Source: a virus (Duplodnaviria > Caudoviricetes). From it: a DNA stretch of 64,000 bases. This document shows, piece after piece, positions 5,711 to 38,338 of this stretch. The notes beneath the pieces were generated by a model, which worked only from the letters and a program-made list of their open reading frames with translations, made no database searches and had not been told where the DNA came from. Positions within the stretch are counted from its first letter, which is position 1. The number at the start of each line of letters is the position of its first letter. The position numbers were made by a program, and so were the translations under genes. The stretch lies in the IMG/VR virus record IMGVR_UViG_3300007513_000003; one strand, written 5' to 3'.

Positions 5711-7780
5711 TTAACCAGTGCGTTTTGTGATCATTTCAGTGATATTAGCAGGGCACGGTGCGTAGTGACTAAACTCCATACTAAACTGACCACGGCCGCT
5801 CGTCATACCACGCAAGTCGCCAATATAGCCAAACATTTCACCAATTGGTGCTTCTGCCCAAATGCGTACCTTTTGTCCACTAACTTCTTGATTGCTAATC
5901 ATGCCGCGGCGTCTGTTAATGTCGCCAATAACGTCACCAACTTTATCCTCTGGAGCAATTACGTCAAGTTTCATGACAGGCTCTAGTAATTGTGGTCCTG
6001 CTTTAGGCATGGTTTGTCTAAAGCCACCTCGAGCCGCTAATTCAAACGCAATAGCACTTGAGTCAACTGCGTGTGAAGAACCGTCTGTTAATGTCACTTT
6101 AAAGTCTAACAACGGATAACCTGCTACAATGCCGTTATTAGCAGACTCTCTAAAACCTTTTTCAACAGCAGGCCAAAACTCTCTTGGCACATTACCACCG
6201 ACAACTTTTGATTCAAACTCAAAGCCGCCGCCTGATGGCAATGGCTCTATAGTATATTCAATATCACCAAATTGGCCAGAACCACCTGATTGCTTTTTAT
6301 GAACAAATTTGTCTTCCACTGTTTGTGTAATAGTTTCTCTGTATGCTACTTGTGGTTTACCAATACTTACTTCAATGCCATGGGTTCTTTTAAGAATGTC
6401 GCACTTAATGTCTAAGTGTAGTTCGCCCATACCCTTAAGAATAGTTTGCCCACTTTCTTGATCTGTTTCAACATGGAAGGACGGATCTTCAGCGACCATT
6501 TTACCAATAGCAGTTCCTAACTTATCCATGTCACCTTGTGTCTTTGGTTCAACAGCAATACTAATAACCGGGGCAGGGAATACCATTGGCTCTAGTACGG
6601 CGGGTTTATTTTTATCACACAGTGTATGACCTGTTTGTACAGTTTTCATACCAAGCAATGCAATAATATCGCCTGCTTGTGCAGAGTCCTTTTCTTCTCT
6701 ATTGTCGGCATGCATTTCTACAATACGGCCAACACGTTCGGACTTGCCTGTGCTACTGTTATAAATTGTATCACCTTTGTTAAGTTTGCCAGAGTAAATG
6801 CGTGTAAATGTCAATGCACCATACTTGTCGTCCATAATCTTAAACGCAAGTGCTCTTAGTGGTCTGTCATCATCAACAATAGCATGTTCACCTGTTTCAT
6901 TGCCTTCTAAGTCTACTTCTGGCTGTGGATCAACCTCAGTAGGATTAGGCAAATAATCAACCACGGCACTCAATACATTTTGTACGCCTTTATTTTTAAA
7001 TGAACTACCACAGAATGTTGGGAAGAAATCACAATTAATTGTACCCTTGCGAATACACTTTTTAAGATCTTCTTCGCTAATGCTGTCAGGATCCTCCATC
7101 CACTGCATCATTACATCGTCGTCTTGCTCTACAACTTGCTCTACCATTAGATCATAATATTCTTTGGCCTTGTCTGCCAAGTCTGCAGGAATGTCGCTAA
7201 TAGTGTAAGAAGTAGGATCTGCTGAATTTGACCAGGCCCATGCTTTTTGCGTAAGAATGTCTACAATGCCTACAAAATCATCTTCAGCACCAATTGGAAT
7301 AGCCATAATAACTGGTACTGCGTTTAAGCGATCTTTAATTTGCTCTACTACACGATAGAAATCTGCACCAACTCTATCCATTTTGTTAACGTAAATAACA
7401 CGGGCAACTTCACTGTCATTAGCATAACGCCAGTTTGTTTCGGATTGTGGTTCTACGCCTCCTACCGCGCAAAAAACACCAACGCCACCGTCTAATACTT
7501 TCAATGAGCGGTATACTTCAATTGTAAAGTCAACGTGTCCTGGTGTGTCAATAATGTTAAACTGGTGGTCATCCCAAAAGCATGTTGTAGCGGCTGACTG
7601 AATAGTAATACCGCGTTCCTGCTCTTGCTCCATAAAATCTGTAGTAGCGGCGCCGTCATGTACTTCGCCTATCTTATGGATTTTACCTGTTAGTTTTAAA
7701 ATGCGCTCTGTTGTTGTAGTTTTACCTGCATCAACGTGAGCGAAAATTCCTATGTTTCTATACTTTTGTAGATCTGACAT
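5711..7780 (-). CDS. fusA: translation elongation factor G, full length (689 aa)
   Basis: [15 protein letters not shown] (G1), RGITI (G2), DTPGHVDF (G3), NKMD (G4), [30 protein letters not shown]. Confidence 0.97.
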
Positions 7781-7807
7781 TCTTATTGCTCCAGCAAAAA
7801 TTTCTTA

Positions 7808-7854
7808 TATTTATAAGCAATAAGTATTGTACACTATTATTATGGTAATGTCAA
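7808..7854 (-). promoter_or_regulatory. tandem sigma70 promoter and T4-type late promoter for fusA
   Basis: TTGACA-N17-TACAAT (7826-7854) and TATAAATA (7808-7815). Confidence 0.7.
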
Positions 7855-7858
7855 ATAA

Positions 7859-9493
7859 TTAGAAACCCCACCAATCACGTACTCCGGGATTAAATGACCC
7901 GCTGGTTGTTCCTGTTATTTTCTCAACTTGCCCATCGCTGTTAGGCACGGGAGTAGAACTGAAATATTTATACTTTATCCATTCTTTACATTTATGACCT
8001 CCAACAAAAATTTCTTGTTCATTATAAGCATCTAATTCTACTTTATATCCCCAGATATAAGCAATATAGTTTAGCACGTCTACAGTAGATTCGTTTGCTA
8101 ATTCTCTACCGCTTTTACCTCTGTATAAATGTAACAATAATGTTCTTTTATCATCATGATCAAAGTCTCTTACTTGTATATCTGGAATGCGATAGTTATA
8201 GTCATATTGTCTTGCTAATTCTTTGCGTATGCTCTTGTAACCAGCGTTGTTATGGATTGCTTTTACTTGATAATGTGGATCTTGCTTGCGGTCGCCAAGT
8301 TGGAACAATCTAAAATCACGTATAACTTTTGGAGATAAAAACTGTAGTATAAAACTCTCGTCCCTATAATTAGCAACGATGTCTAATGTAATCTCTTTCC
8401 AATTACCGCCAGCAACATCAGGAAACCATTCTTTATCTTCTTTTGTTGGCTCATCGCACATACGTTTAATGTCTTGAAAAATAGCAAAACCTAATGCATA
8501 TGGATTTATGCCACCATAATATGGTTTATCAAATGTAAGTTGGTTTAAAACGTTTGTGTGTAGTTTTAAAAACTCTAGCATACTTGCGTCACAAATCAAA
8601 CCTTTTTCATGTAAACGATTCATTGTATAATAATGCACAAAGCAAGCATATCCTTCGTTCATCACTTTTGTTTGTCCTTGCGGATAAAAATATTGTGCTA
8701 TCTTACGCACAATACGACATAATTCGCGTTGCCAATCTGTTAAATTAGGCGCGTTTTTTTCAAGGAAATATATAATGTTTTCTTCTGGTTTATCCAAATA
8801 AACATATTTTCTGTCTGTTTTCTTCTTTTCTTCCTTTTTACGTTTAATTACTGTTGTGTCCCATAACTCATTAACATGTTTGCGTAAGTATTCTGCCCTT
8901 TCACCCGCTTTCTCTGCCTCTGCATACGAATTAAGTTTTACTGGACGCTTATATTTGTTAATACCGTAATTACGAATAGAGTGTAATGCATCTAAAAATA
9001 GTTCTACTTCGTCTAATCCATATTTTTCTTCACACTTCTTAACAAAGTTTTTAGCAAATACAAGATAATCAATAATTGCTTCTGCGTTTGTCCATGTTTT
9101 AAACAAGTAGTTATTTTTAAAGAAATGGTTGTGGCCAAACGCGGCGTGAGCAATAACTAATGCTTGCGTGGTCATTGTATTCTCTTCCATGAGATAGTTT
9201 ATGCATGGATTACTATTAATAACGAGTTCGTATGCTAAACTAGTTCTACCTTTTCTGTATTGATTTTCATAATGTGACCATGCCTTACCATTGCTCCAAT
9301 GGTTATATGATAAGGGCATACCAATACTTGCATATGCATCTAACATTTGCTCAAACGTTACAACTTCAAGTTGGTTCGTGTAAGTATCGCAACCAAGTTC
9401 ATTAACTGCAATATCTTCGCAAGCATCGTAGATGTTACTTACAAGTTCAAAACTCCAATCATCTTGTTGTGTGAATAATAGTTTAGTCATCAC
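7859..9493 (-). CDS. spoVR: SpoVR/YcgB family protein
   Basis: MPLSYNHWSNG, LAYELVINSNPC, HAAFGHNHFFKNN, TKVMNEGYA, YRDESFI.QFLSP. Confidence 0.93.
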   Translation of the reverse strand: MMTKLLFTQQDDWSFELVSNIYDACEDIAVNELGCDTYTNQLEVVTFEQMLDAYASIGMPLSYNHWSNGKAWSHYENQYRKGRTSLAYELVINSNPCINYLMEENTMTTQALVIAHAAFGHNHFFKNNYLFKTWTNAEAIIDYLVFAKNFVKKCEEKYGLDEVELFLDALHSIRNYGINKYKRPVKLNSYAEAEKAGERAEYLRKHVNELWDTTVIKRKKEEKKKTDRKYVYLDKPEENIIYFLEKNAPNLTDWQRELCRIVRKIAQYFYPQGQTKVMNEGYACFVHYYTMNRLHEKGLICDASMLEFLKLHTNVLNQLTFDKPYYGGINPYALGFAIFQDIKRMCDEPTKEDKEWFPDVAGGNWKEITLDIVANYRDESFILQFLSPKVIRDFRLFQLGDRKQDPHYQVKAIHNNAGYKSIRKELARQYDYNYRIPDIQVRDFDHDDKRTLLLHLYRGKSGRELANESTVDVLNYIAYIWGYKVELDAYNEQEIFVGGHKCKEWIKYKYFSSTPVPNSDGQVEKITGTTSGSFNPGVRDWWGF

Positions 9494-10829
9494 TTTTATC
9501 CTTTGGTGTAAAAAACCTTCTAAAAACTGGATATATATCTTTGCTTTGATGAACTCTACCTAATTGTATATTCGACCATTCTTGTGATAACATATAATAT
9601 CTCTTTTCCATACCAGCGCCTGCTACATATTTCAAATCAGCATGTGTCTGACCTGCATTAGGAACAATGCATAAGAATGTAAAATATTGGCAAATAGGTA
9701 AAAGATCGTTGCGTAAAACTTCTGCTACTTTATCATTGTCTGTTGTAAAATTATCACCATCACTTGCCTGGCTAATATAAATGTTCCAGTGTTCTAAATC
9801 ATATCGCTTCTTAATAATTTCATGTGTTAATTCTAATGCTGAACTTACTACTGTGCCGCCACTTTCTTTGCTATTAAAGAATTCATCTTCTGTACATTCC
9901 TTAGCAACAGTATGGTGGCGTATAAACACAATGTCTACCAAGTCATACTTCATATTTAAAAACATATGTAGTAAAATAAAAAAGCGTTTTGCTAAATTCT
10001 TTTCACGTTCTTGCATTGATATTGATACATCTAAAATACAAAACATTACAGCCGCATTTTTAGGCTTTGGTACTTTAGAGAAGTTGTTAAACTTTAGATC
10101 AATTGGATCAATAAACGAGATAGCATTGTATCTTGCTCGTATGCGTTTTATCTCTTCCTCAATCTCTTGCAAACGTAGCCATTCTTGTGTTCTATGATCT
10201 TTGCCTGGTGGCAATGTAGCAAAAAACTCAAGTATTTTATCACGCTCTTCTAGTAGTTCGCGTAATTTTCTTCCCTTAGGCTTTTTAAGAGCCAAACGTC
10301 TGCCAATACTGCGTATCATGCTCTGTTCTAAATTTAGATTGTTTGGTGAGCCTTCATTTACATAACCTGCTCTTTCAACACTAAACTCTTCAATACTTTT
10401 CTTTTGTTTCTCTATTAAATCAGGAAGTTCTAAGTCTTCAAATAATATATCTAAAAATTCATCTTTGTTTATAGAGAATACAAAATCGTCTTCGCCATAT
10501 GCATCATCTGAACCTTCAGATCCGCCGCCGCCTCCTTGGCCACCCTGGGGTGGTTTGCGTATTTTATCGCCAGGAACATATTCTTTATTGCCGGGTAAGA
10601 CATAATCTTTTTCACCTGATTTAGGATCGTATTGGAATTGTGGTTCTTTAATACTTTTAGCAGGAACTTTGACGCGGCTGCCAGACTTTAGATCCTTGAT
10701 AGATCTGTTTTTAATAGTTTCGTCTAAGCTTTCCTTAATATACTTCTTTGACCGCTCAATGAAGCGTTGTCTATTGGAAAGATTCTTTCCCTTAGGATTT
10801 GAACGCCTGTCAATAATATGCTTGGCCAT
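9483..10829 (-). CDS. yeaH: YeaH/YhbH family vWA-like protein
   Basis: IIDRR.NPKGKNLSNRQRF, Gly-rich linker, DVSISM (MIDAS-like), ESGGTVVSSAL, SDGDN. Confidence 0.93.
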   Translation of the reverse strand: MAKHIIDRRSNPKGKNLSNRQRFIERSKKYIKESLDETIKNRSIKDLKSGSRVKVPAKSIKEPQFQYDPKSGEKDYVLPGNKEYVPGDKIRKPPQGGQGGGGGSEGSDDAYGEDDFVFSINKDEFLDILFEDLELPDLIEKQKKSIEEFSVERAGYVNEGSPNNLNLEQSMIRSIGRRLALKKPKGRKLRELLEERDKILEFFATLPPGKDHRTQEWLRLQEIEEEIKRIRARYNAISFIDPIDLKFNNFSKVPKPKNAAVMFCILDVSISMQEREKNLAKRFFILLHMFLNMKYDLVDIVFIRHHTVAKECTEDEFFNSKESGGTVVSSALELTHEIIKKRYDLEHWNIYISQASDGDNFTTDNDKVAEVLRNDLLPICQYFTFLCIVPNAGQTHADLKYVAGAGMEKRYYMLSQEWSNIQLGRVHQSKDIYPVFRRFFTPKDKSDD

Positions 10830-10838
10830 GGTAAACCC

Positions 10839-12779
10839 TTAACTTGACTTCTGGGTTCTCATGTACCATTCAACAAGTCTACGAACTTGCCTATCAGTAT
10901 AACCTTTCTCTTCCATACGAGCAACAAAGTCATTGTGCTTTTGTTGGTCATCTTTGTTTTGCTTATTACCAAAGGAAATAATAGGTAGTAGTTCTTCTGT
11001 GGACGCAAACATTTTCTTTTCAATAATCTCGCGTAGTTTTTCATAACTCGACCACTTTGGATTCTTACCTTTGTTTTTTGCTTTTGCTCTCAATACAAAG
11101 TTGACTACTTCGCTACGGAAGTCTTTTGGATTAGCGATACCGGCTGGTTTCTCAATCTTCTCTAACTCCTCGTTTAGTACTTCGCGGCTAAACAAGTTGC
11201 CTGTGTCAGGATCTTTAAAGTCAATCTCTTGAATCCAGTGATCAGCGTATTCAATATAACGATCAAACAAGTTTTGTCCATAATCACTATAACTTTCTAA
11301 ATATGCTTTTTGTATTTCATTACCAATAAAGTCAGCATACTTTGGAGCCAACCATTCTTTAATAAAGTTTGTGAGCGTTTTTTCATTTTCCTCACCAAAC
11401 TGATCGCGTCTAATTGCTTGCTCTAGTACAAACATCAAATGTACTGGATCAGCCGCAATCTCGTTTGTGTCAAAGTTAAACACTTGTGACAGTATCTTAA
11501 ACGCAAAACGTGTTGATGAGCCAGACATGCCTTCGTCTACTCCCGCAACGTCTTTATATTCTTGTAGTGACTTTGCTTGTGGATCAGTGTCTTTTAAATT
11601 CTTGCCGTTATACACTTGCATTTTGGAAAACAAATTACTGTTTTCATGCTCACGCAGTCTACTTAAAATACTATACTGCGATAACATTTCAAGTGTTTGC
11701 GGGGCACATGGATGCTGTGCTAGTCCACTTGAGTCTAGCATCTTTTCGTAAATACTAATCTCTTCATCAATACGTAAGCAGTAAGGAACCTTAACAACAT
11801 ACACACGATCTAGGAACGCTTCGTTGTTTTTGTTGTTCTTAAATGACTGCCATTCTGATTCGTTACTATGTGCTAAAATTGTTCCACTAAACGGAATAGC
11901 ACTAATACCTTCTGTACCCATATAGTTGCCTTCCTGCGTAGCAGTTAGCAATGGGTGTAATACTTTGATTGGTGCTTTAAACATTTCAACAAATTCCATA
12001 AGGCCTTGGTTGCCTTTACATAATGCACCACTAAATGCGTATGAGTCTGGATCGTGTTGTGAGAAGTACTCAAGTTGACGAATATCTGTCTTACCAACCA
12101 ATGAACTAATGTCTTGGTTGTTTTCGTCACCTGGCTCTGTTTTTACTACAGCAATCTGTTTTAGTTTACTTGGCTGTAATTTTACTACTGTAAATTTAGT
12201 AATGTCACCATCAAATTCATCCAAGCGTTTAATTGCCCATGGGCTTAGTAAGCCAGTTAGGTAACGCTTTGATATTTTATATTCTTTCTCAATTTGCTCA
12301 CCATATTTCTCAGGAGAGAACAGAGACAACGGACTTTCAAAAACAGGGCTAATTACATCGCCTGCTTTTAGTACATAAATTGGATGTATTTCCATTAATT
12401 CTTTTAAACGTTCAGCAAGACTCGACTTGCCGCCGCCCACTGGGCCCAACAAATATAATATTTGTTTACGTTCTTCTAAGCCTTGTGCGGCATGTTTAAA
12501 AAATCCAACAATTCTTTCTACGGTATCTTCTAGTCCGTAAAAGTCTTTAAATGCTGGATATACTCGTAATGTTCTGTTCAGGAAGATGCGTGACAACCGT
12601 GGATCTTCCGAAGTATCTATATGCTCTGGGTCCCCAATGGCAGCTAACATTCGTTCTGCTGATGTAGCATATGCGAGTGGGTCCTTCTTACATAGATTTA
12701 GATACTCTTCAAGTGTGAACTCTTGCTCTTTATATGATTGGTAATCTGCAGAGAACTCCTTTAATAGTTTGCTTGCCAT
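10839..12779 (-). CDS. prkA: PrkA/YeaG family AAA+ Ser/Thr kinase
   Basis: Walker A LLGPVGGGKSS, EPGDENNQDIS, EFVEMFKAPIKVLHPLLTATQE, HSNESEW. Confidence 0.95.
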   Translation of the reverse strand: MASKLLKEFSADYQSYKEQEFTLEEYLNLCKKDPLAYATSAERMLAAIGDPEHIDTSEDPRLSRIFLNRTLRVYPAFKDFYGLEDTVERIVGFFKHAAQGLEERKQILYLLGPVGGGKSSLAERLKELMEIHPIYVLKAGDVISPVFESPLSLFSPEKYGEQIEKEYKISKRYLTGLLSPWAIKRLDEFDGDITKFTVVKLQPSKLKQIAVVKTEPGDENNQDISSLVGKTDIRQLEYFSQHDPDSYAFSGALCKGNQGLMEFVEMFKAPIKVLHPLLTATQEGNYMGTEGISAIPFSGTILAHSNESEWQSFKNNKNNEAFLDRVYVVKVPYCLRIDEEISIYEKMLDSSGLAQHPCAPQTLEMLSQYSILSRLREHENSNLFSKMQVYNGKNLKDTDPQAKSLQEYKDVAGVDEGMSGSSTRFAFKILSQVFNFDTNEIAADPVHLMFVLEQAIRRDQFGEENEKTLTNFIKEWLAPKYADFIGNEIQKAYLESYSDYGQNLFDRYIEYADHWIQEIDFKDPDTGNLFSREVLNEELEKIEKPAGIANPKDFRSEVVNFVLRAKAKNKGKNPKWSSYEKLREIIEKKMFASTEELLPIISFGNKQNKDDQQKHNDFVARMEEKGYTDRQVRRLVEWYMRTQKSS

Positions 12780-14333: not shown

Positions 14334-14344
14334 ACTCTAACCAG

Positions 14345-16301: not shown

Positions 16302-16326
16302 CTGGTAATTACCTTTAAATATTTAT

Positions 16327-25388: not shown

Positions 25389-25417
25389 ATTATATATTAC
25401 ATTACGGTCATTGTCAA
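25389..25417 (-). promoter_or_regulatory. sigma70-type promoter
   Basis: TTGACA-N17-TATAAT. Confidence 0.8.
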
Positions 25418-29577: not shown

Positions 29578-29589
29578 ACACATATTTAG

Positions 29590-29847
29590 TGGGGGCGACT
29601 TTGTTAAGAAGGTGTCGCCCCCGAAACCCCCTACGCGACCGCTAATTAGGCGGCTAATGCGTAATCGTAATAATCGTCATTTGCAATTATATAGTTTGCT
29701 GTTTTTTAATATGGAACTGCTCCCATATGTCGTCCATTTATCCTCTTCACCCTGTCGAAACTGTGTCACCCCCGTAAAAAATTTGGTGGAGGTGCCGGGC
29801 ACTGCCCCCGGGTCCAGAATGCGTACTTTCAACTTCATACGACAATC
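29590..29847 (-). ncRNA. ssrA: two-piece (circularly permuted) tmRNA; tag ANDDYYDYALAA
   Basis: Minus strand: acceptor piece ...GGACCCGGGGGCAGTGCCCGGCACCTCCACCA (ends 29784), 10-nt intervening segment, coding piece GGGGGTGACACAGTTTCGAC (starts 29773); 7-bp acceptor stem with G3:U70; tag ORF 29646-29684; late box 29853-29860. Confidence 0.93.
29591..29622 (-). terminator. GC-rich hairpin at the 3' end of the tmRNA coding piece
   Basis: GGGGGCGAC...GTCGCCCCC. Confidence 0.65.
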
Positions 29848-29872
29848 AAAATTATTTATATAGGTGTAGAAG

Positions 29873-29902
29873 AATAAAGGAATACCTGAGCATTCCTTTA
29901 TT
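29873..29902. terminator. 11-bp perfect hairpin between rpmG and ssrA
   Basis: AATAAAGGAAT-N8-ATTCCTTTATT. Confidence 0.65.
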
Positions 29903-30071
29903 TAATTTTCTTTTCTTCAAACCAGACGTGTTTTCTTAAAACTGGATCGTATTTCTTTTTACGTAGTTTTTCAGGATTGCGTCCGTTTTTAGTAGTAGTA
30001 TAATAGTAGCCAGTGCCTTCTGTTGACACTAGTTTAACTATTCTAATTGATTTACTAGTAGGATAAGACAT
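29898..30071 (-). CDS. rpmG: 50S ribosomal protein bL33 (57 aa, non-zinc type), absent from the ORF track
   Basis: Hand translation [57 protein letters not shown]; TAATG coupling to the upstream ORF. Confidence 0.93.
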
Positions 30072-30397
30072 TAGTATTGATTTTTTGTTGTGTTGTCGGC
30101 AAACGCATGATTGTCAATAACATGTTCTTTTGCTTTTTCATTTGTCATTTCATCAGATGTTTCCGGAATAAAAGGAACATCAAGATTTGTGTAAATGTTA
30201 TACCAACGTGATGATGGGCCCCATGTTGCGGGCCCGCAATCGAAATATGGTGTTTCAGTGTACCTATGTGTTTCTTTGAGTATTTGTTTTGAATTTGATT
30301 CTTGCAGATCTTTACAAAATGCGTAAAAAGTTTCTGCTTTTTCAACATCGCCTTCTGCAAGTTTGAGACACTCTAATTTTAAAGTTGAGTCATCCAT
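30071..30397 (-). CDS. hypothetical protein
   Basis: [10 protein letters not shown]-terminus; SD-like AGGA. Confidence 0.65.
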
Positions 30398-30411
30398 AAT
30401 CAAATCCTATA

Positions 30412-30579
30412 TTAGTCTTGCCAAATTCTCCATGCACCGTAAATAATAGCGGCCCATGCAATCCAAGTAACTAGTGGTGAAAATAATAGTGCAAGAACAC
30501 CAACACCTACTAGTACTGTGCCATCCCAAGTTGATCTTTCTGACCATTTTGCTTTGGCCCAATCAATTAAATTAAACAT
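30412..30579 (-). CDS. 55-aa membrane protein, absent from the ORF track
   Basis: Hand translation MFNLIDWAKAKWSERSTWDGTVLVGVGVLALLFSPLVTWIAWAAIIYGAWRIWQD; SD AGGAG. Confidence 0.7.
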   Translation of the reverse strand: MFNLIDWAKAKWSERSTWDGTVLVGVGVLALLFSPLVTWIAWAAIIYGAWRIWQD

Positions 30580-30602
30580 AATAAGCTCCTTTAAAATATA
30601 AG

Positions 30603-30902
30603 TTATTTATCCGCTTCTACTTTAACTTGTAGCGGATAATTATTATTTCGTGCCAAAAGTGTCACTTCAATACCGTGTTGTTCAGCAATTTCATATGGCA
30701 AAATAGCAACAATAGCAGAACCTTCTGCATCTACTTTATATGTTAGTTCTTGTGCTTCTTCTAATGTGTGGCTAAACACAGTCATAAGAACATTAACAAC
30801 AAAGTCCATTGGTGTTACATCATCATTGATGAATATAACTTTATACAATGATGGCTCTTTTAAATCTAATTGCTTTTTAATCTTGGTTGCAGTATCAGAC
30901 AT
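30603..30902 (-). CDS. clpS: ATP-dependent Clp protease adaptor ClpS
   Basis: EPSLYKVIFINDDVTPMDFVV.VL..VF, V..EGSAIV, YEIAE, YPLQVKVE. Confidence 0.92.
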   Translation of the reverse strand: MSDTATKIKKQLDLKEPSLYKVIFINDDVTPMDFVVNVLMTVFSHTLEEAQELTYKVDAEGSAIVAILPYEIAEQHGIEVTLLARNNNYPLQVKVEADK

Positions 30903-31465
30903 TAATTATCCTTTTCGTAATCTTTCTTAATATTTTTATCTACAAAGTCTTTTAGTCTATATATTTTATATCTTGCGCCTTCTCGAGTTTGTCCACTTTG
31001 CCCTCGCTCCAGCATACCCTCTAAAAATTCAATAACTAGTGGGTTTCCTTTTTTCTTTGCTTCTCTTCCACGTTTAAGTTCTTCTTGCATTTCTCGTGAG
31101 AAAGGTATTTTATATAAACGAGTATTTCTCTCTCCTAAATGTTGCACCCATATTTCTATTACATGCCCTTGTCGTTGTCCATCAAGTAGCACAACTTTTC
31201 CTGAAGGGTATGTAGGAAGTGCATATCCTAGAAAATTATTTAACTTCACTATTGTACTATAGAATAAGAAAAAAATCAATGGAATTGTTAAAAACTTTAT
31301 ATAAAACTTAGCTGGTGTTTTTAGTAATGCGTATAATACTAATATTGCTAATACTAGCATGGCACCCAATTGTAAACCAAACTCGTATATAATATTATAC
31401 CAGTCTGATAAAACGATTTCATCCGTAGTATAATCAGTAAAATCTATTATTTCTTTCTCTGACAT
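30902..31465 (-). CDS. membrane protein, third gene of the ExbB/MotA-type module
   Basis: Two N-terminal TM helices; coupled gene order. Confidence 0.65.
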   Translation of the reverse strand: MSEKEIIDFTDYTTDEIVLSDWYNIIYEFGLQLGAMLVLAILVLYALLKTPAKFYIKFLTIPLIFFLFYSTIVKLNNFLGYALPTYPSGKVVLLDGQRQGHVIEIWVQHLGERNTRLYKIPFSREMQEELKRGREAKKKGNPLVIEFLEGMLERGQSGQTREGARYKIYRLKDFVDKNIKKDYEKDN

Positions 31466-31467
31466 AA

Positions 31468-32298
31468 CTAATTAGTTCCCTCTTGTTGCCATTTTCTCAA
31501 TTGAGTTGTCATTCCATCCCATAGACTAGGATCATATGTATCACCAATTGCCATAGGATGATTGCCATTATCGTCTTCAAAGTGTGTTAACCCATCTGTA
31601 TATACAAATGGTGTCGGATGATTATTAACGTATTCTATAGAATATGTATAACTTTGGGTACCGTCTGGGGTTGCGATTCCATTCTCTCTTTGTACAACTG
31701 TAAAGTTAAATGCAGTAACTTCTTCGCCAGTTTCTGTCATTTCAAATTTGGCAGTAGTAATTTCTTTAAACGGATTTACTCTTACTAATTCAACTGTTAC
31801 AGGTATTGGATATTTGGGAGGATTTGGAGATATGTCCTCAGGATTATCTGCTCCCGTGTATCCGGAAAGTCTTGACCGATGTGCATAATAGTGTACATTA
31901 ACTGTCCATTCACCTGGAATCCAGCCACGTATAGTAGCAACTTCAACATTTTCATCTACTGCTACTATAGTGCCGTCTGCTAACATAAGTGTATCGTTTG
32001 CCGCGCCCAAATCATCTCTATCTAAATGCATTAAGCCTGATGTGCGCGATTTAAAACTAACAACATTACCTTCAGGATCTTTTACCCACAAGTCAATATC
32101 ACTGTAATTGCCAACTTCCCAAGTCAATGTAATAATTAGTTCAGACTTAGGGTCTATTTTTTTATTCGTAGGTATAGGAGGTTGTATTAGCAAAAAAGAG
32201 ATAACAAACAGAAATACGAAACCTACTAATGTATTAAAAAGTAGATCAGTAAATCCTAGTCCTGAAAATTTTGATCGCTCACGCTTTCCTGTGGTCAT
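31468..32298 (-). CDS. single-TM partner of the MotA/ExbB-like protein
   Basis: GFTDLLFNTL (conserved TM Asp as in ExbD/TolR/MotB), then DIDLWVKDP periplasmic domain. Confidence 0.65.
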   Translation of the reverse strand: MTTGKRERSKFSGLGFTDLLFNTLVGFVFLFVISFLLIQPPIPTNKKIDPKSELIITLTWEVGNYSDIDLWVKDPEGNVVSFKSRTSGLMHLDRDDLGAANDTLMLADGTIVAVDENVEVATIRGWIPGEWTVNVHYYAHRSRLSGYTGADNPEDISPNPPKYPIPVTVELVRVNPFKEITTAKFEMTETGEEVTAFNFTVVQRENGIATPDGTQSYTYSIEYVNNHPTPFVYTDGLTHFEDDNGNHPMAIGDTYDPSLWDGMTTQLRKWQQEGTN

Positions 32299-32749
32299 AT
32301 TCTAAGTTTATCAATTGAAGTTTTGAAAGTAACGAACACGTTAAACCCACCAATGTAGTAGTTAATGCTGTACTCATACCAGCAGCCATGTCGCGAATGA
32401 CTTCTTTTGCCTGTCCGATGTTTGATAAATCTAGATCGTTAAACGAGCCACCAAGCATTATAATAAATCCAGTTACTGTTCCAATTAGTCCTAGTGATAC
32501 CATCGACTCGGCGAAGAACCAAGATACTTCTATAGATCTAAAGTTTAATGGTTTGCGTTTAGAAACTTTGTATGTTTGTAACCCTATATTGGCTGTTACG
32601 CCTGTAAACAATGCTATAATAAAGAAACTAATTTTTGTTTGGTCTAAATACCAAAGAGTACGCCACATATCAAAATAATATAATACTGCGGCACTACATG
32701 CTATTACGCAGGTCAATAACCACCACTTTAAGAAACTATTAGACTTCAT
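32279..32749 (-). CDS. MotA/TolQ/ExbB proton channel family protein
   Basis: SLGLIGTVTGFI, GMSTALTTTLVGL; start inferred from TAAATA-N5-ATG. Confidence 0.85.
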   Translation of the reverse strand: MKSNSFLKWWLLTCVIACSAAVLYYFDMWRTLWYLDQTKISFFIIALFTGVTANIGLQTYKVSKRKPLNFRSIEVSWFFAESMVSLGLIGTVTGFIIMLGGSFNDLDLSNIGQAKEVIRDMAAGMSTALTTTLVGLTCSLLSKLQLINLEYDHRKA

Positions 32750-32792
32750 TAATATATTTATGTAAAAGAATATTATTATAAATATTTGTACC

Positions 32793-33860
32793 ATGCACGA
32801 CAAAAAGTTCTTTTGTATAGAGCCTTTCGTAAGTCTTTCTATAGTTAAAGAAGATCATATTTTTCCTTGTTGTCTTAATGAAGGGCAAAAAAGCACTCAA
32901 AAAGATGACCTATGGAACGATCCTTATCTTGAAAATATACGAAAACAAATTCTAAACAACGAAGTTCCTGAAGAATGTCGCGCCTGTGTTGAACAAGAAA
33001 AGTTTGGTCGATATAGCAGACGATTACATTCTAATGATGTTTGGTTAGAACAACACGGCAATTTTGAAGATGCTCTTGAAAATGATGCTCCGTATAAGTT
33101 AGATTTTTGGACTGGAAACTTGTGTAATTTGGCTTGTAGTACTTGTACATATACAAATAGTTCATCATGGTTTACACTTCTTAAAAAAGCAGATAAAGCA
33201 GGAAAAACTGATTTACGTTATAAAGGAAACTATGTAAGTAATTTAGATTACTCTTATGAATTTAAAAAAGAAGATATTCCGAATATTGACTTTAAAAATA
33301 TGGAAAATATACACTTCAACGGCGGTGAACCCTTGCTAACAGATTCACACTTTAAAATTTTAAATTTAATTCCGCCAGAACAAAGAAAGGATGTTTATGT
33401 CATTTATAACACAAACGGTACCGTCAGAATAGATTTAGAAGATGAAAAATGGAGTATTTTCAAAGAATACAAAAGTGTCGATATGTGTTTTAGTATAGAT
33501 GGCATTGAAGAAACATTTAATTATGTTAGATGGCCTGCTAAATGGGAAGAAGTACAAAGCAACATTGATCTATGGGCTGAATATTGTTATGGAAAATATG
33601 ATGACTGCCACTTTGAAATGAGTGTAAACATGGTAAAAACTCCGCACAATTATACAACGTTTGATAATGCCGTTAAATATGTCACTGATCGTTGGTTTAC
33701 CAAACTTATTGCGATTCGAAACGCAAGCATTGATGAATATGTGTTTACTACTAATGATCATTCTTTTATGGATTGGTCAGACGCACAATTTGAAGAATAC
33801 ACAAAGACAGAAGAATTTTTCTTGCAAACAAAAAATTTAGAAACACTACGAAATCTTTGA
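32793..33860 (+). CDS. radical SAM protein with N-terminal SPASM/twitch-like Cys cluster
   Basis: CNLACSTC, FNGGEPL, FSIDG; N-terminal FCIEPF..PCC..CRAC. Confidence 0.88.
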   Translation: MHDKKFFCIEPFVSLSIVKEDHIFPCCLNEGQKSTQKDDLWNDPYLENIRKQILNNEVPEECRACVEQEKFGRYSRRLHSNDVWLEQHGNFEDALENDAPYKLDFWTGNLCNLACSTCTYTNSSSWFTLLKKADKAGKTDLRYKGNYVSNLDYSYEFKKEDIPNIDFKNMENIHFNGGEPLLTDSHFKILNLIPPEQRKDVYVIYNTNGTVRIDLEDEKWSIFKEYKSVDMCFSIDGIEETFNYVRWPAKWEEVQSNIDLWAEYCYGKYDDCHFEMSVNMVKTPHNYTTFDNAVKYVTDRWFTKLIAIRNASIDEYVFTTNDHSFMDWSDAQFEEYTKTEEFFLQTKNLETLRNL

Positions 33861-33869
33861 TAAATATTA

Positions 33870-33898
33870 TTGACATATTAAAGCAAAGATGCTATAAT
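33870..33898 (+). promoter_or_regulatory. sigma70-type promoter of hsp20
   Basis: TTGACA-N17-TATAAT. Confidence 0.8.
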
Positions 33899-33904
33899 AT
33901 GTAA

Positions 33905-33960
33905 TATAAGTGCTCAATTGGGAGGCTTATAACTTTACTCGCTTAATATAAGGAGGAACT
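33905..33960 (+). promoter_or_regulatory. ROSE-like RNA thermometer in the hsp20 5'UTR
   Basis: CUCGCUU (33938-33944) pairs with AAGGAG (33950-33955) with a bulged G. Confidence 0.6.
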
Positions 33961-33964
33961 TAAA

Positions 33965-34399
33965 ATGACAGAGTATAGAATCACATCTGGGAATCTAATC
34001 CCAACACTTAACCGACACATGGTAGGCTTCGATCGTCTCTTTGGCGATATGGACAGATTGTTTACAAGGGGCCAAGCACCATCTTACCCACCTTACAACA
34101 TCGAAAAACTTAGCGATACAGAATATGTTATCACTATCGCTGTCGCTGGTTTTGATCAAGGTGATCTTTCAGTAACCGTTGACAACGGCGTTCTTAATGT
34201 CTCAGGACACAAAGAAGATTCAGATAAGCAAACATGGTTACACAAGGGCATCGCTACACGCGACTTCCAACGCTCTTGGAACCTTGCTGAATTTGTTAAG
34301 GTTGTCTCAGCAGAGTGTAAAAACGGTATGCTTGAAGTTCGTTTGGTTCAAGAAGTTCCTGAAACCGCTAAACCCAAGGAAATTGAGATTAAATTTTAA
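33965..34399 (+). CDS. ibpA: small heat shock protein Hsp20 (IbpA-like)
   Basis: VGFDRLF, YPPYNI, IAVAGF, LHKGIA.RDF.R, NGMLEV.L...VPE. Confidence 0.92.
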   Translation: MTEYRITSGNLIPTLNRHMVGFDRLFGDMDRLFTRGQAPSYPPYNIEKLSDTEYVITIAVAGFDQGDLSVTVDNGVLNVSGHKEDSDKQTWLHKGIATRDFQRSWNLAEFVKVVSAECKNGMLEVRLVQEVPETAKPKEIEIKF

Positions 34400-34422
34400 T
34401 CTTTTTAGGGAGGAGATGGAAG

Positions 34423-34441
34423 TGGGGGCAGTTTGCCCCCA
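34423..34441. terminator. hairpin terminator between convergent hsp20 and rpsU
   Basis: TGGGGGCA-GTT-TGCCCCCA. Confidence 0.7.
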
Positions 34442-34470
34442 TTTTCATAGCAAATTTTGTATCTTAGTCG

Positions 34471-34782
34471 TTAGTATAATCTATTTTTACTAGGTATTCT
34501 TTCTGCTTGCTCTTTAAGATGCCGCTTGCGGGCAACGTCTCTTGCTCTTTTTCTTTTAATACTTGGCTTTTCATAATGTTCGCGGGCTTTTAGTTCTTGC
34601 AATTTGCCGTCGTTGTCTATTTTCTTCTTAAGTTTACGTATTGCCTTTTCAACATTTCCGTCATTAACCCAAACTCTGAGTCCTGTAATTTTTACTGGAG
34701 CCCGTTTATCTTTTTGTTTGAATGGCGCTCTTCTATTATTATTCCATTTTGTATTTCTATTATTCCAAGTTTGTGCCATCAT
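34471..34782 (-). CDS. rpsU: 30S ribosomal protein bS21 with basic N-terminal extension
   Basis: V.VNDGNVEKAIRKLKKKI, REHYEKPS.KRKR. Confidence 0.88.
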   Translation of the reverse strand: MMAQTWNNRNTKWNNNRRAPFKQKDKRAPVKITGLRVWVNDGNVEKAIRKLKKKIDNDGKLQELKAREHYEKPSIKRKRARDVARKRHLKEQAERIPSKNRLY

Positions 34783-35168
34783 TCCTCCAAGTATTGTAGT
34801 GGCTCTATAATATTTTTTATTCTGTTTTTATTTAATAAACTATATGATTCTGCGATACTATCATCGCAAAAGTAATAGCAGTTATTTTTATTTAACATCC
34901 ATCCAAACACGTGAGCAATAATATGATTGTATCGTAAATCAATTATTATGATATCTGATTGTTGCGTAGTATTAAGCAACCAATCTATATTGTCATTCAT
35001 AACCGGATCATAGATACATAAACTAACATCTAAATCTACATGTTTTAGTGTATTTAAAATTTCTCTTTGATCTTCTAAACCACATGCCGCAATTAATATG
35101 TTTAATGCTGATCCGTAATATTTGTCAGGTGGAGTTATAAGTGTAATTGTGTTATTCGCCGAGGACAT
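34779..35168 (-). CDS. hypothetical protein
   Basis: 129-aa ORF, ITLITPPD motif. Confidence 0.65.
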   Translation of the reverse strand: MSSANNTITLITPPDKYYGSALNILIAACGLEDQREILNTLKHVDLDVSLCIYDPVMNDNIDWLLNTTQQSDIIIIDLRYNHIIAHVFGWMLNKNNCYYFCDDSIAESYSLLNKNRIKNIIEPLQYLEE

Positions 35169-37092
35169 CTTTACGTTTTAAGGTTGTTTGTAAGTATTCT
35201 TGTTCTTCTTCTGTAAACTCTGTAACACTTACACCATTATTTACACGTGACATTAAGTCGTCGATCTGTTTTTGACTTAATTTCTTTTGTTTGTCAGACT
35301 TGTTTAATTCTTTCTTAAGTTTTTCTATTTCTTTTTCTAACTTTTTAACTTTTTTAGTATCTTCTTTATGTACCACAAATGGTTTGCCTTCTAACTGTTC
35401 CTTTTCTACTACTTTCTTTTCTACAATTTTCTCTACAATAACTTCAACAGGAACTTCTTTAATCACTTCCTTTTCAACTATTACCTCTACTGGCACTTCC
35501 TTCTCAACCAGTTTCTCAACCTCTACTATCTTTTCAACTTCAACAGGAACTTCCTTTTCTACTATCTTCTCAACCTCTACTATCTTTTCTACAACCTTCT
35601 CTACTTCAACAGGAACTTCCTTCTCAACTAGTTTCTCAACTTCTACAATTTTCTCTACAACTTTCTCTACTTCGACAGGAACTTCCTTTTCTACTATCTT
35701 CTCAACCTCTACTATTTTCTCTACGACTTTTGGCTGATCAGTCTTTTTTTTACTAGCAGGTGGTTCTGTAGGTGGTGTTGGTTTTCGTGGTTTATCTGTG
35801 CGGAATCTTATTAGTGTCATATTACCAGCAATAACTAACAATACTGCTAATGGATCAAATACAAATATAATAACAATAATAACCCATCTTACAGCATCTT
35901 CCAGTAAGTCAGTCGTAATATCATTGCCATATATTAAACCAGCAATGTACTTAATTGGGCCCACTTCTGCTTCTAATTCTCTTACTTGGCTTGCTAACAC
36001 AAAACGTTCTTCATTTAATGTGTCTATTTGTGTATAATAGTTTTCAATTTCTATCTCTAACTCTTTTACTTTGCCTTCTACTTCGTCTGCTTTAACGCCC
36101 ATTTGCTCTTGTAATGATTTAATTTCATTATTAGCGGCGGTAATTTCTGCTTGTGTTTGCTGTCTTAACTCATCAATCTTTTGCTGATGTGGTTTAACTT
36201 TATTAGTGTAGTCTGCTCTTAATGCTGTTATTTGTTTTTGAACATCATCTGATACATCAATCTCTTTTTGTCGCAGTTCATTAATTTCGTTTTCAATTTC
36301 TCTAATTTGTGCGGCAAGTTCATCTCTGCGTGGTTGCTGTTCTTTTCTTAATTCTCTACCTTTTTCAACCCAATCTGTAATATTACCCCACGCACTTTTT
36401 TCTACACCTTTGTCTGTATATGCTTTAACATCAGTGTCTAATTGTGCTATTGTTTGATTAACACGCTCGATGGCTTGTTGTTTTACTACAACATCTTCTT
36501 GAACACGAGATTGTGCTACTTTAATGCGTTCTTCTTCTACGTCAATATTGTTTTCTAACTGCTCACGTAATGACTGTATCTGTGCTTCTTCTTGTGCTAT
36601 TAAACTGCTGACTCTATTCCAAGCACCATCACGTATTTGCTCTTGCTGTTCTATTGCTCTTGCTATATTTGTATTGTGTTGTCCTGTATCATTACTTTCT
36701 AATCTAGTAATTTTTTCTTTAGTAACATTTACTCTGCCATTATAGCGAGCAATTTTTTCATCAATACGTTCTACTTGTGCTTGTGCTTGTCCTGCGCCAG
36801 TAGTTTGTTCTACGTGGGCCTTGGATAAAAAGCCAAAGATACCCATAGAGGTAATAAACATTAGCACAACAACCGCAAGAGTAAGATAATACTTTAAAAA
36901 TTTAGGTATGTTGAACCAAAACTGGTAGAGCCACGAGGCAGTTACTAACTTACCTACTTCAAGAACCGCCCCCATAATAGCAATGGGTACAGCCGCGGCG
37001 GCAAATATAGCCATTAATCCTATAATGCTATAATATGCGGCAACGGCACTGATAGACAGCGCCGTCAATAGTACAAATAATGCAAAACCCAT
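35152..37092 (-). CDS. membrane-anchored long coiled-coil protein with V/E/K repeats
   Basis: Three N-terminal TMs, coiled coil, EVGPIKYIA, VFDPLAVLL TM, repeat tract. Confidence 0.8.
   Translation of the reverse strand: MGFALFVLLTALSISAVAAYYSIIGLMAIFAAAAVPIAIMGAVLEVGKLVTASWLYQFWFNIPKFLKYYLTLAVVVLMFITSMGIFGFLSKAHVEQTTGAGQAQAQVERIDEKIARYNGRVNVTKEKITRLESNDTGQHNTNIARAIEQQEQIRDGAWNRVSSLIAQEEAQIQSLREQLENNIDVEEERIKVAQSRVQEDVVVKQQAIERVNQTIAQLDTDVKAYTDKGVEKSAWGNITDWVEKGRELRKEQQPRRDELAAQIREIENEINELRQKEIDVSDDVQKQITALRADYTNKVKPHQQKIDELRQQTQAEITAANNEIKSLQEQMGVKADEVEGKVKELEIEIENYYTQIDTLNEERFVLASQVRELEAEVGPIKYIAGLIYGNDITTDLLEDAVRWVIIVIIFVFDPLAVLLVIAGNMTLIRFRTDKPRKPTPPTEPPASKKKTDQPKVVEKIVEVEKIVEKEVPVEVEKVVEKIVEVEKLVEKEVPVEVEKVVEKIVEVEKIVEKEVPVEVEKIVEVEKLVEKEVPVEVIVEKEVIKEVPVEVIVEKIVEKKVVEKEQLEGKPFVVHKEDTKKVKKLEKEIEKLKKELNKSDKQKKLSQKQIDDLMSRVNNGVSVTEFTEEEQEYLQTTLKRKDVLGE
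35399..35730 (-). repeat. coding tandem repeats EKIVEVEK(I/L)VEKEVPVEV
   Basis: Visible in the translation of 35152..37092. Confidence 0.9.
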
Positions 37093-37153
37093 TGTACTAG
37101 TATTTATTGTTATATATAAACTTTATAACCACTAATTTTGCTGTAAATATGGG

Positions 37154-37174
37154 TAACCACACCGAGTGTGGTTA
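37154..37174. promoter_or_regulatory. perfect 9-3-9 palindrome upstream of a small exported protein gene
   Basis: TAACCACAC-CGA-GTGTGGTTA. Confidence 0.55.
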
Positions 37175-37192
37175 TATTATGGAGGTATTATA

Positions 37193-37408
37193 ATGATAAA
37201 GGCTCTTTTAAGCGCAGCTTTATTACTAGGTCTTTCTGGAATCGCATCTGCAGAAGGTCGTGATGTAGCTTGGGAGAATTTCCAAGGAACAGTCGGCACT
37301 CCTGGCCCTTGCGAAGTTCTAGTAAATGATAAAGGTAAACCATATGTTTGTTGGACTATCTTTCCAGGACCTGGTGCAGAAGGCTCCGGAGAAGATTACC
37401 GCAAGTAA
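37193..37408 (+). CDS. small exported protein (71 aa)
   Basis: SD GGAGG; signal peptide MIKALLSAALLLGLSGIASA; two Cys. Confidence 0.7.
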   Translation: MIKALLSAALLLGLSGIASAEGRDVAWENFQGTVGTPGPCEVLVNDKGKPYVCWTIFPGPGAEGSGEDYRK

Positions 37409-37492
37409 ACATTAATTTATTTCTATTATAGGAGAAGGGCGTACGGAATGGTTTTGCTATTAGCAGGATTACCGGCGCCCTTTTTCACTCCA

Positions 37493-38338
37493 TTAATTAT
37501 TATACATTTCCATAGCACGAATAAAACGTGTCATACCAATGCCACCGCCTACTCTTGGAAAGAAGTCCATTGCTAAAAAGTCTTCCAACTCTTTTTCAAC
37601 TCTTTCTCTACCAAACGTATCAAATAGTATATTAGCATAACCGCCGTCACTAATAGTATGGAACATATGTTTCATTTGTTCTTTATCTGTAGCACGTTCT
37701 GCTGATCCAATTGTTTCTTGTCCAGCAATAATAACATCAATCTTTGCCGCAGTTTCGCCATCGTCGTTTTGTTTCATGTTCCAAAATGGACTTGTGTAGT
37801 TTGGAAAGTTTTTAATCATTGCTACACGGCCATTAAAGTTTTGGCACATTTTTTCTTCATGCTCGTGTTCTAATTCTTTAACGCCGTAAATATCACACCA
37901 TTCTAAATAATCTTTAGCAACAATGTTTTCGCCATCGGACCATGTTAAGTAGTCCATAAGTTCGCGTTCCATCTTCTCTAAATCTAAAATAGTTCCTGGA
38001 AACTCAAACTCAAACATTGGAAATATTAGTTCATGTCTACCAGCTACCGGATTTGGCTCTTGCCTATAGGAGGTGGAAATACAAAAAAACCCCGGAACGT
38101 CGGGGCGTGTTAGTAATTCATGTTCGAGCCACATTTGGCCCGTTTGTGGCAGGGGCCATAGTTGCCCTGCGTAATTATAGGTCGCTATTGTTGTTGGATC
38201 TTCGCATGCCGCTAGTATGCTTAATCTATTTTGTGTGTGTACTTCTAAGAATCCTTTAGCCATAAAAAAAGACCTTAATAGGTCTGCGGCTTGTGTAAAG
38301 TGTTGTGGATTGATAAGTTGTGTCATTGTTTTCTCCAT
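37493..38338 (-). CDS. class II aminoacyl-tRNA synthetase catalytic-domain protein (Asn/Asp/Lys-like, no anticodon domain)
   Basis: Motif 2 SYRQEP...RH..IFPMFEFE, ETIGSAER, motif 3 PRVGGGIGMTRF; only 281 aa. Confidence 0.85.
   Translation of the reverse strand: MEKTMTQLINPQHFTQAADLLRSFFMAKGFLEVHTQNRLSILAACEDPTTIATYNYAGQLWPLPQTGQMWLEHELLTRPDVPGFFCISTSYRQEPNPVAGRHELIFPMFEFEFPGTILDLEKMERELMDYLTWSDGENIVAKDYLEWCDIYGVKELEHEHEEKMCQNFNGRVAMIKNFPNYTSPFWNMKQNDDGETAAKIDVIIAGQETIGSAERATDKEQMKHMFHTISDGGYANILFDTFGRERVEKELEDFLAMDFFPRVGGGIGMTRFIRAMEMYNN

Follow-up and report, generated by a model that had tools for sequence, protein, structure and literature searches.

The 64,000-nucleotide stretch of viral DNA analyzed here (IMG/VR record IMGVR_UViG_3300007513_000003, Duplodnaviria, Caudoviricetes; hereafter the window, always meaning the whole stretch) encodes, between positions 5711 and 38338, seven components of translation and proteostasis: the elongation factor EF-G, a transfer-messenger RNA (tmRNA), the ribosomal proteins bL33 and bS21, the adaptor ClpS, the small heat shock protein Hsp20, and an aminoacyl-tRNA synthetase-like (aaRS-like) protein. 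An earlier note, made from the letters alone, had picked out this set and had asked whether it forms one coordinated late ribosome-reprogramming system rather than random cargo. Using open reading frames (ORFs) called under translation table 11 together with Pfam, NCBIfam, ARAGORN, and Rfam, we found all seven parts present and intact at the places where the note had put them. Their neighborhoods, their relatives, and their predicted promoters, however, point away from a single system and toward a selectively kept mosaic whose blocks were acquired, and are regulated, independently of one another, a reading to which we would assign a probability of roughly 0.65.

That the DNA comes from a phage, as the note had assumed, is borne out by virion and lysis genes in the window and by T4-like core genes in its relatives. 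Three whole IMG/VR records of relatives (whole records are labeled G and IMG/VR loci L), namely, G001, G005, and G006, encode T4-like gp23, gp20, gp17, gp18, gp21, gp47, and UvsW as well as a gp55-like late sigma factor, which makes the lineage a distant T4-like jumbo myovirus. It is marine: the DNA runs that contain the stretch are marine or seawater metagenomes. RNA runs contain only 10 to 12% of the stretch's words. The relatives compared below comprise nine IMG/VR loci retrieved via EF-G (78 to 93% identity) and seventeen via ClpS, and we distinguish a close clade (the window, L007/L010, G001, G005, and G006) from deeper relatives (G007 to G010 and L016 to L026), whose ClpS is about 50% identical; the records of the latter are only 27 to 36% complete, and EF-G, bL33, and the aaRS-like gene may sit elsewhere in those genomes. 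Eight whole records range from 98 to 322 kb, with CheckV completeness of 27 to 90% and a GC content of 35 to 42%, sizes and completeness that imply a genome of about 330 to 375 kb; relatives of 158 to 322 kb reach 42 to 90% completeness. When 12 kb were compared by megablast with 50,697 phage records, no match emerged, and hence no close cultured phage. The host may lie within the Pseudomonadota, as two weak leads suggest, namely, the alpha/beta permuted type of the tmRNA and the nearest Atlas clusters of EF-G, which are Pseudomonadota EF-G paralogues.

The seven components and their neighborhoods

EF-G (689 amino acids [aa]; 5711 to 7780, minus strand) contains five Pfam domains (GTP_EFTU, D2, EFG_III, EFG_IV, and EFG_C) and scores 952.7 bits against TIGR00484 (cut-off 659.4), with the EF-G2, Tet, and RF3 models remaining below their own cut-offs. 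It is the final gene of a conserved block, PrkA-YeaH-SpoVR-EF-G, whose first three members (7859 to 12779, minus strand; Pfam E values of 1e-152 to 1e-173; YeaH is DUF444) are context rather than translation parts, and this block is kept in all nine loci retrieved via EF-G (L001 to L009). The distance from EF-G to ClpS is never 10 kb or less in the loci examined, and in relatives an array of 15 tRNAs lies about 10 kb beyond EF-G. PrkA is itself 92 to 95% identical across the clade, with a ratio of nonsynonymous to synonymous substitution rates (dN/dS) of 0.02 to 0.04.

ClpS, bL33, and the tmRNA share one minus-strand run, as the note had described, and do so within 1.35 kb. ClpS (99 aa; 30603 to 30902, minus strand) matches PF02617 at 3.2e-27 (94.6 bits; cut-off 23) and falls below the cut-off of every NCBIfam equivalog model, for which reason we regard it as a divergent family member. 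Aligned to Escherichia coli ClpS structures, whose N-degron pocket we take to be formed by N34, D35, D36, T38, M40, and H66, the phage protein retains the pocket residues N26-D27-D28 and T30-P31-M32. The equivalent of H66 is D58 (30729 to 30731), an Asp in the window and in L010 and a His in all other relatives, and this exchange may have changed the N-degron specificity.

Downstream of ClpS, bL33 (57 aa; 29898 to 30071, minus strand) is identified by PF00471 (2.3e-15, 57 bits; cut-off 25), TIGR01023 (64 bits; cut-off 24), and NF001860, likewise above its cut-off; with zero Cys among its 57 residues, it is of the C- form, which has no zinc-binding Cys pairs. It overlaps at its start with the stop of the ORF ahead of it and is the last in a row of genes that overlap or abut (MotA/ExbB-like, orf31468, orf30902, ClpS, orf30412, orf30071, and bL33; 29898 to 32803, minus strand) found in the same order in L010 and L011. 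Homologues in L010 to L015 are 67 to 77% identical. Only in the window's clade does bL33 lie near ClpS; one copy of 42% identity stands beside PrkA in L005.

The tmRNA (29555 to 29882, minus strand) is of the two-piece, circularly permuted kind, called as permuted by ARAGORN with the tag ANDDYYDYALAA and matched by Rfam RF04321 (tmRNA_permuted; 121.8 bits, gathering threshold 47) and RF01849 (alpha_tmRNA; 83.7 bits, gathering threshold 50). Read directly, it consists of an acceptor piece with a terminal CCA and a coding piece, with some 10 nt intervening between the two. The coding piece is base paired at its 5' end to the acceptor strand (G3:U70 among the pairs), has GCA as its resume codon, and encodes ANDDYYDYALAA followed by a stop. 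In its permuted order, G3:U70, T arm, resume codon GCA, and ALAA-ending tag, it resembles bacterial trans-translation RNAs and the two-piece tmRNAs of alphaproteobacteria. It differs from the bacterial tmRNA-SmpB system in the shortness of its intervening segment and in its missing partner: SmpB (PF01668) was found in none of nine relatives' records, including the 90%-complete G001, whereas a control search found 10 bacterial genomes positive, and the tmRNA must therefore use SmpB of the host. Homologues occur in L010, L011, L017, and L022, and some deeper relatives also have a two-piece tmRNA, 7 to 10 kb away at a variable position. In the G005/G006 clade (L011, about 11040 to 11230), the intervening segment measures about 190 nt and opens, in L011, with a Shine-Dalgarno-like site and an ATG. 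The tags that ARAGORN proposes for this clade are wrong; Rfam and the alignment give ANDDYYEYALAA.

The remaining two genes of the central region lie on opposite strands. Hsp20, an IbpA-like protein (144 aa; 33965 to 34399, plus strand), matches PF00011 at 1.7e-16 (60.6 bits; cut-off 20.8) and the IbpA and IbpB equivalogs at 1e-32 and 1e-30 (NF008013, 1.9e-32), yet below their cut-offs; its gene has a strong Shine-Dalgarno sequence and is, in the window, inverted and 3.5 kb away from ClpS. bS21 (103 aa; 34471 to 34782, minus strand) is recognized by PF01165 (4.4e-16, 58.8 bits; cut-off 27) and TIGR00030 (58 bits; cut-off 29), aligns with the bS21 of solved ribosomes through the C-terminal RLY, and has an N-terminal extension of about 35 aa, basic and aromatic in character, like those reported for the rpS21 of huge phages. 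To judge from coordinates and overlaps, it ends an operon (34471 to 37092, minus strand) composed of TM35152, a 646-aa membrane and coiled-coil protein, orf34779, and bS21. Homologues of all three sit upstream of ClpS in distant relatives, and TM35152 used as the IMG/VR query gave no confirmed relatives.

Conserved order, selection, and predicted regulation

Wherever a contig covers the region, the close clade keeps every part and nearly every neighbor in the same order, while the deeper relatives share only ClpS, Hsp20, bS21, and the two genes preceding bS21, sometimes joined by a tmRNA. The co-occurrence analysis that the earlier note had called for thus speaks against a patchy distribution among close relatives, but it does not extend the set beyond bS21, Hsp20, and ClpS at greater depth. 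A loss of ClpS in G001 was considered and rejected, since both ends of that contig are situated between SbmA and orf30902, exactly the place of ClpS, bL33, and the tmRNA. By the Nei-Gojobori method, comparison with the nearest relative gave approximate dN/dS values of 0.047 for EF-G, 0.071 for the aaRS-like protein, 0.076 for ClpS, 0.10 for bL33, 0.11 for Hsp20, and 0.12 for bS21. These are as low as the values of ribonucleotide reductase or PrkA and lie below those of the intervening ORFs of unknown kind. Relaxed selection, with dN/dS near 1, had been named by the note as a finding that would speak against its proposal; it is excluded for the six proteins, all of which are clearly under purifying selection. 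Together with the conserved order, this upholds the part of the proposal that denied random cargo.

The seven parts are distributed over at least five transcription units on both strands, with about 40 other genes interspersed. Late-type motifs resembling those of T4 precede several of these units, all on the minus strand. A copy of TATAAATA stands at 7808 to 7815, 27 nt ahead of the EF-G start and followed by a GGAG Shine-Dalgarno sequence; a second at 38375 to 38382, 36 nt ahead of the aaRS-like gene; and a third at 29853 to 29860, directly ahead of the tmRNA, where it reads as a putative late-type promoter of the tmRNA's own and is preceded by a hairpin after the bL33 stop that the terminator scan did not call. 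The gene for TM35152, which heads the bS21 operon, has AATAAATA in front of it, ending 9 nt ahead of the first ATG. Since about 19 of 83 genes, including predicted virion and baseplate genes, show TAAATA 6 to 17 nt ahead of their ATG, and since gp55 is present in the lineage, it is plausible that the TATAAATA-type motif serves as a late promoter. Hsp20, instead, is preceded on the plus strand by a sigma-70 promoter matching at 12 of 12 positions (TTGACA, 17 nt, TG-TATAAT with extended -10; 33870 to 33898), which ends 66 nt ahead of its start and is the sole such match in 9 kb; it predicts early transcription by the host RNA polymerase. A sigma-70-like site (10 of 12; 32803 to 32775, minus strand) marks the start of the run from the MotA-like gene through ClpS to bL33. 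The predicted timing would accordingly be mixed, of sigma-70 type for Hsp20 and the ClpS-bL33 run and late-like for EF-G, the tmRNA, the aaRS-like gene, and the TM35152-bS21 operon.

An ancestral cassette, probable N-degron genes, and a synthetase-like core with its tRNA

The deeper history of the central genes becomes visible in a wider set of relatives. An alignment-based scan identified at least 497 IMG/VR contigs with this type of ClpS; the best 80 of these matches and 17 from the first search yielded 95 ClpS loci for examination (L010 to L026 and L097 to L174), which fall into 56 clusters at less than 90% ClpS identity. In 54 of the 56 clusters, Hsp20 lies 470 to 620 nt upstream of ClpS on the same strand, the two exceptions being the window's clade. 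bS21 is found within 5.5 kb of ClpS in 33 of 39 clusters, a TM35152 homologue within 8.5 kb in 30 of 36, and, directly ahead of bS21, a 400-aa ClpX gene in 29 of 39, whose product is identified by its zf-C4_ClpX, AAA_2, and D2-small domains and by GYVG, IGF, and RKH-like loops. The only companions of ClpS across the 95 loci are Hsp20, bS21, and usually ClpX. From these positions it follows that the ancestral gene order, judged by comparative sequence, is ClpX-bS21-Hsp20-ClpS, in a large lineage of huge phages; it is seen, for instance, in L118 (7955 to 10297) and L099 (7691 to 10312). The same comparison indicates that in the window's clade ClpX is lost at this place, Hsp20 is inverted, and about 3 kb (radical SAM, MotA-like, orf31468, and orf30902) are inserted.

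Further proteolytic genes are encoded elsewhere in the relatives. In G001, DnaJ, peptide deformylase, and ClpA form one run at 221 to 226 kb (L039, 2004 to 5793), the ClpA (783 aa) comprising Clp_N, two AAA modules, and a D2-small domain, with a similar ORF in G007. A ClpP-family protein of G001 lies at 202 kb (L038, 1760 to 2401), 20 kb from the ClpA run, and is distinct from the gp21 prohead protease; strong ClpP matches also occur in G007 and G009. G001, G005 (about 122.4 kb), and G006 (about 2.9 kb) moreover share a 235-aa Bpt/ATE-like ORF (L094, 1399 to 2106, minus strand), for which the ATE_C model stays below threshold (22.6 bits against a cut-off of 25). Its AlphaFold2 (AF2) model, with a predicted local distance difference test (pLDDT) score of 84, nonetheless has ATE1 arginyltransferases as all thirty of its best PDB matches (E about 6e-7), and its further fold matches are other aminoacyl-tRNA-dependent transferases. 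The protein had zero matches among the 50,697 phage records. On the strength of these assignments, the lineage probably encodes an N-degron writer (the Bpt-like protein), a reader (ClpS), and a protease (ClpA with ClpP).

This bears on a link that the earlier note had drawn between ClpS and the LAA end of the tmRNA tag, which we cannot uphold, because ClpS, as is well established, recognizes N-degrons and not the LAA tag. It is ClpX, with SspB, or else ClpA itself that reads the C-terminal LAA, and ClpS, the N-degron adaptor of ClpA, is reportedly an inhibitor of ClpAP on ssrA-tagged substrates. The note had also suggested searching the rest of the genome for SmpB, tRNAs, and initiation or release factors. 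What this brought to light was the 15-tRNA array; besides the missing SmpB, the relatives' records yielded neither an initiation factor nor a member of the RF-1 family nor a second translational GTPase.

The seventh part is a stand-alone class II catalytic domain of the AsnRS/AspRS type (281 aa; 37493 to 38338, minus strand; PF00152, 7.3e-15). It is without an anticodon-binding domain, its match begins at position 26 of the catalytic-domain profile, and the asnS and aspS equivalogs reach only 28 to 38 bits against cut-offs of 343 to 414; given the lack of an OB-fold domain and the failed cut-offs, we did not file it as an AsnRS. Motifs 2 and 3 are present, and R92, R262, G264, and R271 are nearly invariant in the family alignment. 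Its AF2 model (pLDDT 94.9) finds as best Foldseek matches the catalytic domains of AsnRS and of archaeal and eukaryotic AspRS (E about 1e-17, TMq 0.70 to 0.75), and its profile ranks AsnRS (4e-16) ahead of AS-AR (1e-7) and EpmA (2e-4) in the PDB. AS-AR and EpmA/GenX are likewise cores without an anticodon domain, but the phage core is closer to the AsnRS/AspRS catalytic domains, and both profile and Foldseek make an identity as an EpmA-like protein or asparagine synthetase A less likely than an AsnRS/AspRS-type core. The protein is 64% identical to the “tRNA ligase” of the Prochlorococcus phages P-SSM2, P-SSM5, and P-SSM7, which is also a stand-alone class IIb core of about 280 aa, and has homologues of 45 to 50% identity in the huge-phage genomes LR756501 and LR756508. 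The family is large, with more than 8000 metagenome clusters at 90% identity, 176 clusters at 50% identity (E below 1e-30), and at least 569 IMG/VR viral contigs; its proximity to ClpS is confined to the window's clade.

A tRNA of 85 to 87 nt stands behind the aaRS-like gene in G001 (8563 to 8647), G005 (25759 to 25845), and G006 (99141 to 99227); its anticodon is GUU, its D stem has 3 bp, and its long variable arm is paired. P-SSM2, P-SSM5, and P-SSM7 have the gene and the tRNA side by side as well, the tRNA beginning about 10 nt past the gene, and so do further loci (L175, 4822 to 4909; L176, 12805 to 12891; L177, 12765 to 12852; and among L180 to L259). In a survey of the best 80 of the at least 569 IMG/VR loci, 77 had enough downstream DNA, and 50 of these carry a long-arm tRNA(GUU) of 84 to 90 nt, 11 to 43 nt past the aaRS-like gene, about 10 more having an oddly called tRNA of some 100 nt in that position. 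Among 25 distinct sequences, compensatory changes affect 16 of the 22 predicted pairs. U1:A72, G73, the encoded CCA, and G34-U35-U36 are constant, whereas position 33 is variable and U predominates at position 37, which is unusual for a decoding tRNA. The presence of tRNA(GUU) downstream of most carriers argues for a tRNA substrate of the core. Between the aaRS-like gene and TM35152 of the window itself, neither ARAGORN nor Rfam (E up to 10) detected a tRNA, and L010 is also without one. At the place of the relatives' tRNA, the window has a small ORF (about 37201 to 37408, plus strand) with a GGAGG site and a signal-peptide-like N terminus. That the synthetase-tRNA pair feeds the Bpt-like transferase is unsupported, the latter being matchless in phage records, including those of the pair-bearing cyanophages.

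A probable mosaic toolkit and its alternatives

Under the mosaic reading, four blocks came together. The TM35152-orf34779-bS21 operon, Hsp20, and ClpS would be the rearranged remnant of the ClpX-bS21-Hsp20-ClpS cassette; bL33 and the two-piece tmRNA would have been gained downstream of ClpS in the window's clade; the AsnRS/AspRS-like core, common to Prochlorococcus myoviruses and mostly paired with the long-arm tRNA(GUU), would be a mobile gene; and EF-G would have come attached to the PrkA-YeaH-SpoVR stress operon. In such a scheme, Hsp20 would be made early as a holdase, the phage versions of the exchangeable bS21 and bL33 would enter host ribosomes, and EF-G and the tRNAs would sustain elongation. 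The Ala-chargeable tmRNA, together with host SmpB, may rescue stalled ribosomes, its ...YALAA tag being read by ClpX/ClpA-type unfoldases, while ClpS, the phage ClpA, the ClpP-family protein, and probably the Bpt/ATE-like transferase could carry out N-degron degradation.

Several observations weigh against this reading. The translation parts are tightly clustered, in about 65 kb of a genome of about 330 kb, and may still have some function in common. ClpA, ClpP, the Bpt-like protein, and the tRNA array are seen in relatives only, and the 95 ClpS loci represent one lineage, whose linkage may partly reflect inherited order rather than selection. The dN/dS values are rough, with dS at 0.6 to 1.6 and thus near saturation. 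The promoter classes are assigned from motif matches only, and the 18 occurrences of TATAAATA in the window do not differ significantly from the 12.2 expected, even though 16 of the 18 are on the coding strand, mostly just ahead of genes.

The alternative favored by the earlier note, that the seven parts constitute one coordinated late ribosome-reprogramming system spanning initiation, elongation, the E site, rescue, degradation, and folding, can draw on the joint presence, order, and purifying selection of all parts in the close clade, on their position, together with the tRNA array, in a single arc of about 65 kb of the G001 genome, and on the four units with T4-late-like motifs in a lineage that has gp55; late expression of a phage bS21 is also reported for another lineage (PMC9723584). 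It is difficult to reconcile, however, with at least five transcription units on two strands, about 40 unrelated genes between the parts, and the mixture of promoter types, which includes a perfect sigma-70 promoter at Hsp20 and a sigma-70-like site at the ClpS-bL33 run. The histories of the parts are separate as well, in that the deeper relatives have just bS21, Hsp20, and ClpS in common, at times along with a tmRNA whose position varies, and EF-G is tied to a stress operon. Since, moreover, the LAA tag is not read by ClpS and the other proteostasis genes lie about 100 kb away, we consider one such system unlikely.

Another reading sees in bS21, Hsp20, and ClpS, ancestrally with ClpX, a functional unit by which the phage would substitute its own proteins for exchangeable ribosomal proteins of the host and, through its Clp machinery, clear away host proteins, the other four parts being unrelated cargo. 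The tight same-strand adjacency over 56 ClpS clusters with varying flanks would fit this view, as would the phage ClpA, ClpP-family, and Bpt-like proteins of the relatives and the rank of Hsp20 and Clp families among the commonest neighbors of bS21 in 900 phages (PMC9723584). In the window's clade, by contrast, the cassette is broken (Hsp20 inverted, 3 kb inserted, ClpX lost), and its three genes now belong to three transcription units with different promoter types, so that strict co-expression is not required; we doubt that such a unit accounts for the toolkit.

Two readings reach further. The lineage would own a complete N-degron pathway (Bpt/ATE-like writer, ClpS reader, and ClpA with the ClpP-family protein as eraser), tied physically and evolutionarily to bS21, through which exchangeable ribosomal proteins or factors of the host are tagged and destroyed while phage bS21 and bL33 replace them; and the AsnRS-like core with its long-arm tRNA(GUU) would be a dedicated pair outside ordinary decoding, perhaps for tRNA-dependent Asn synthesis or as an aminoacyl donor. 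These readings strike us as rather improbable. Very improbable, finally, is that the parts are recently captured host genes without a role or cellular contamination of the contig: the region is indeed rich in auxiliary host-like genes, but dN/dS is 0.05 to 0.12 over 7 to 40% protein divergence, the order is conserved in at least five independent contigs from different samples, identity to cellular proteins is only about 50%, and phage structural genes stand on the same contigs.

The toolkit is of a kind known from huge phages, and the idea of redirected translation is already published (PMC7162821, PMC9723584). Al-Shayeb et al. 2020 (PMC7162821) proposed such a model for huge phages carrying EF-G, peptide deformylase, tmRNA, aaRS, tRNAs, and rpS21 with basic aromatic N-terminal extensions; the window's lineage differs in being T4-like and marine, with no SmpB, initiation factor, or release factor found in the relatives' records, in its two-piece tmRNA, and in a set that includes bL33 and ClpS. 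Mizuno et al. 2019 (PMC6375957) found aquatic viral contigs to be enriched in bS21 and bL33, both of them exchangeable proteins with a loose hold on the ribosome, and showed the entry of phage bS21 into ribosomes. Late-expressed phage bS21 is described by Chen et al. 2022 (PMC9723584), in whose 900 phages the top neighbors of bS21 include Hsp20 (n = 127) as well as two Clp pVOGs (n = 50 and 47); in the clades of that study, from Bacteroidetes hosts, bS21 lies inside the head-gene block, whereas in the window it follows a membrane/coiled-coil gene. The ClpX-bS21-Hsp20-ClpS cassette is not described as such in the available parts of these last two papers. Jumbo-phage ClpS, proposed to bring targets to ClpAP, was reported by Iyer et al. 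2021 (PMC7824862), and our tblastn searches located ClpS in Phosso, PA5oct-like phages, and Vibrio 2.275.O and ClpA in Phosso, Atu_ph07, and 121Q-like phages. Identity to these is just 33 to 44%, and the window's lineage adds the Bpt/ATE-like protein and the linkage of ClpS to Hsp20 and bS21. The cassette, the Bpt-like gene, and the pairing of the aaRS-like core with tRNA(GUU) are not described in the literature searched, which is not proof of novelty.

If the mosaic reading holds, a jumbo-phage “translation toolkit” would be assembled from separately acquired blocks that differ in predicted timing and are all maintained by selection. The ClpX-bS21-Hsp20-ClpS cassette, the possible phage N-degron pathway, and the abundant marine-phage pair of AsnRS-like core and odd tRNA would then be testable sub-units, more revealing than a bare list of genes about the phage takeover of protein synthesis and turnover.

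The other genes interspersed among the seven parts include, besides PrkA, YeaH, and SpoVR, two radical SAM enzymes, a nucleoside deoxyribosyltransferase, a cytidylyltransferase-cupin protein, a thioredoxin-like protein, the MotA/ExbB-like protein, and SbmA/BacA. The last is an inner-membrane transporter of the SbmA/BacA family (25414 to 26436, minus strand; Pfam 3.7e-122) that is 82 to 95% identical within the clade, with a dN/dS of 0.04 to 0.09.

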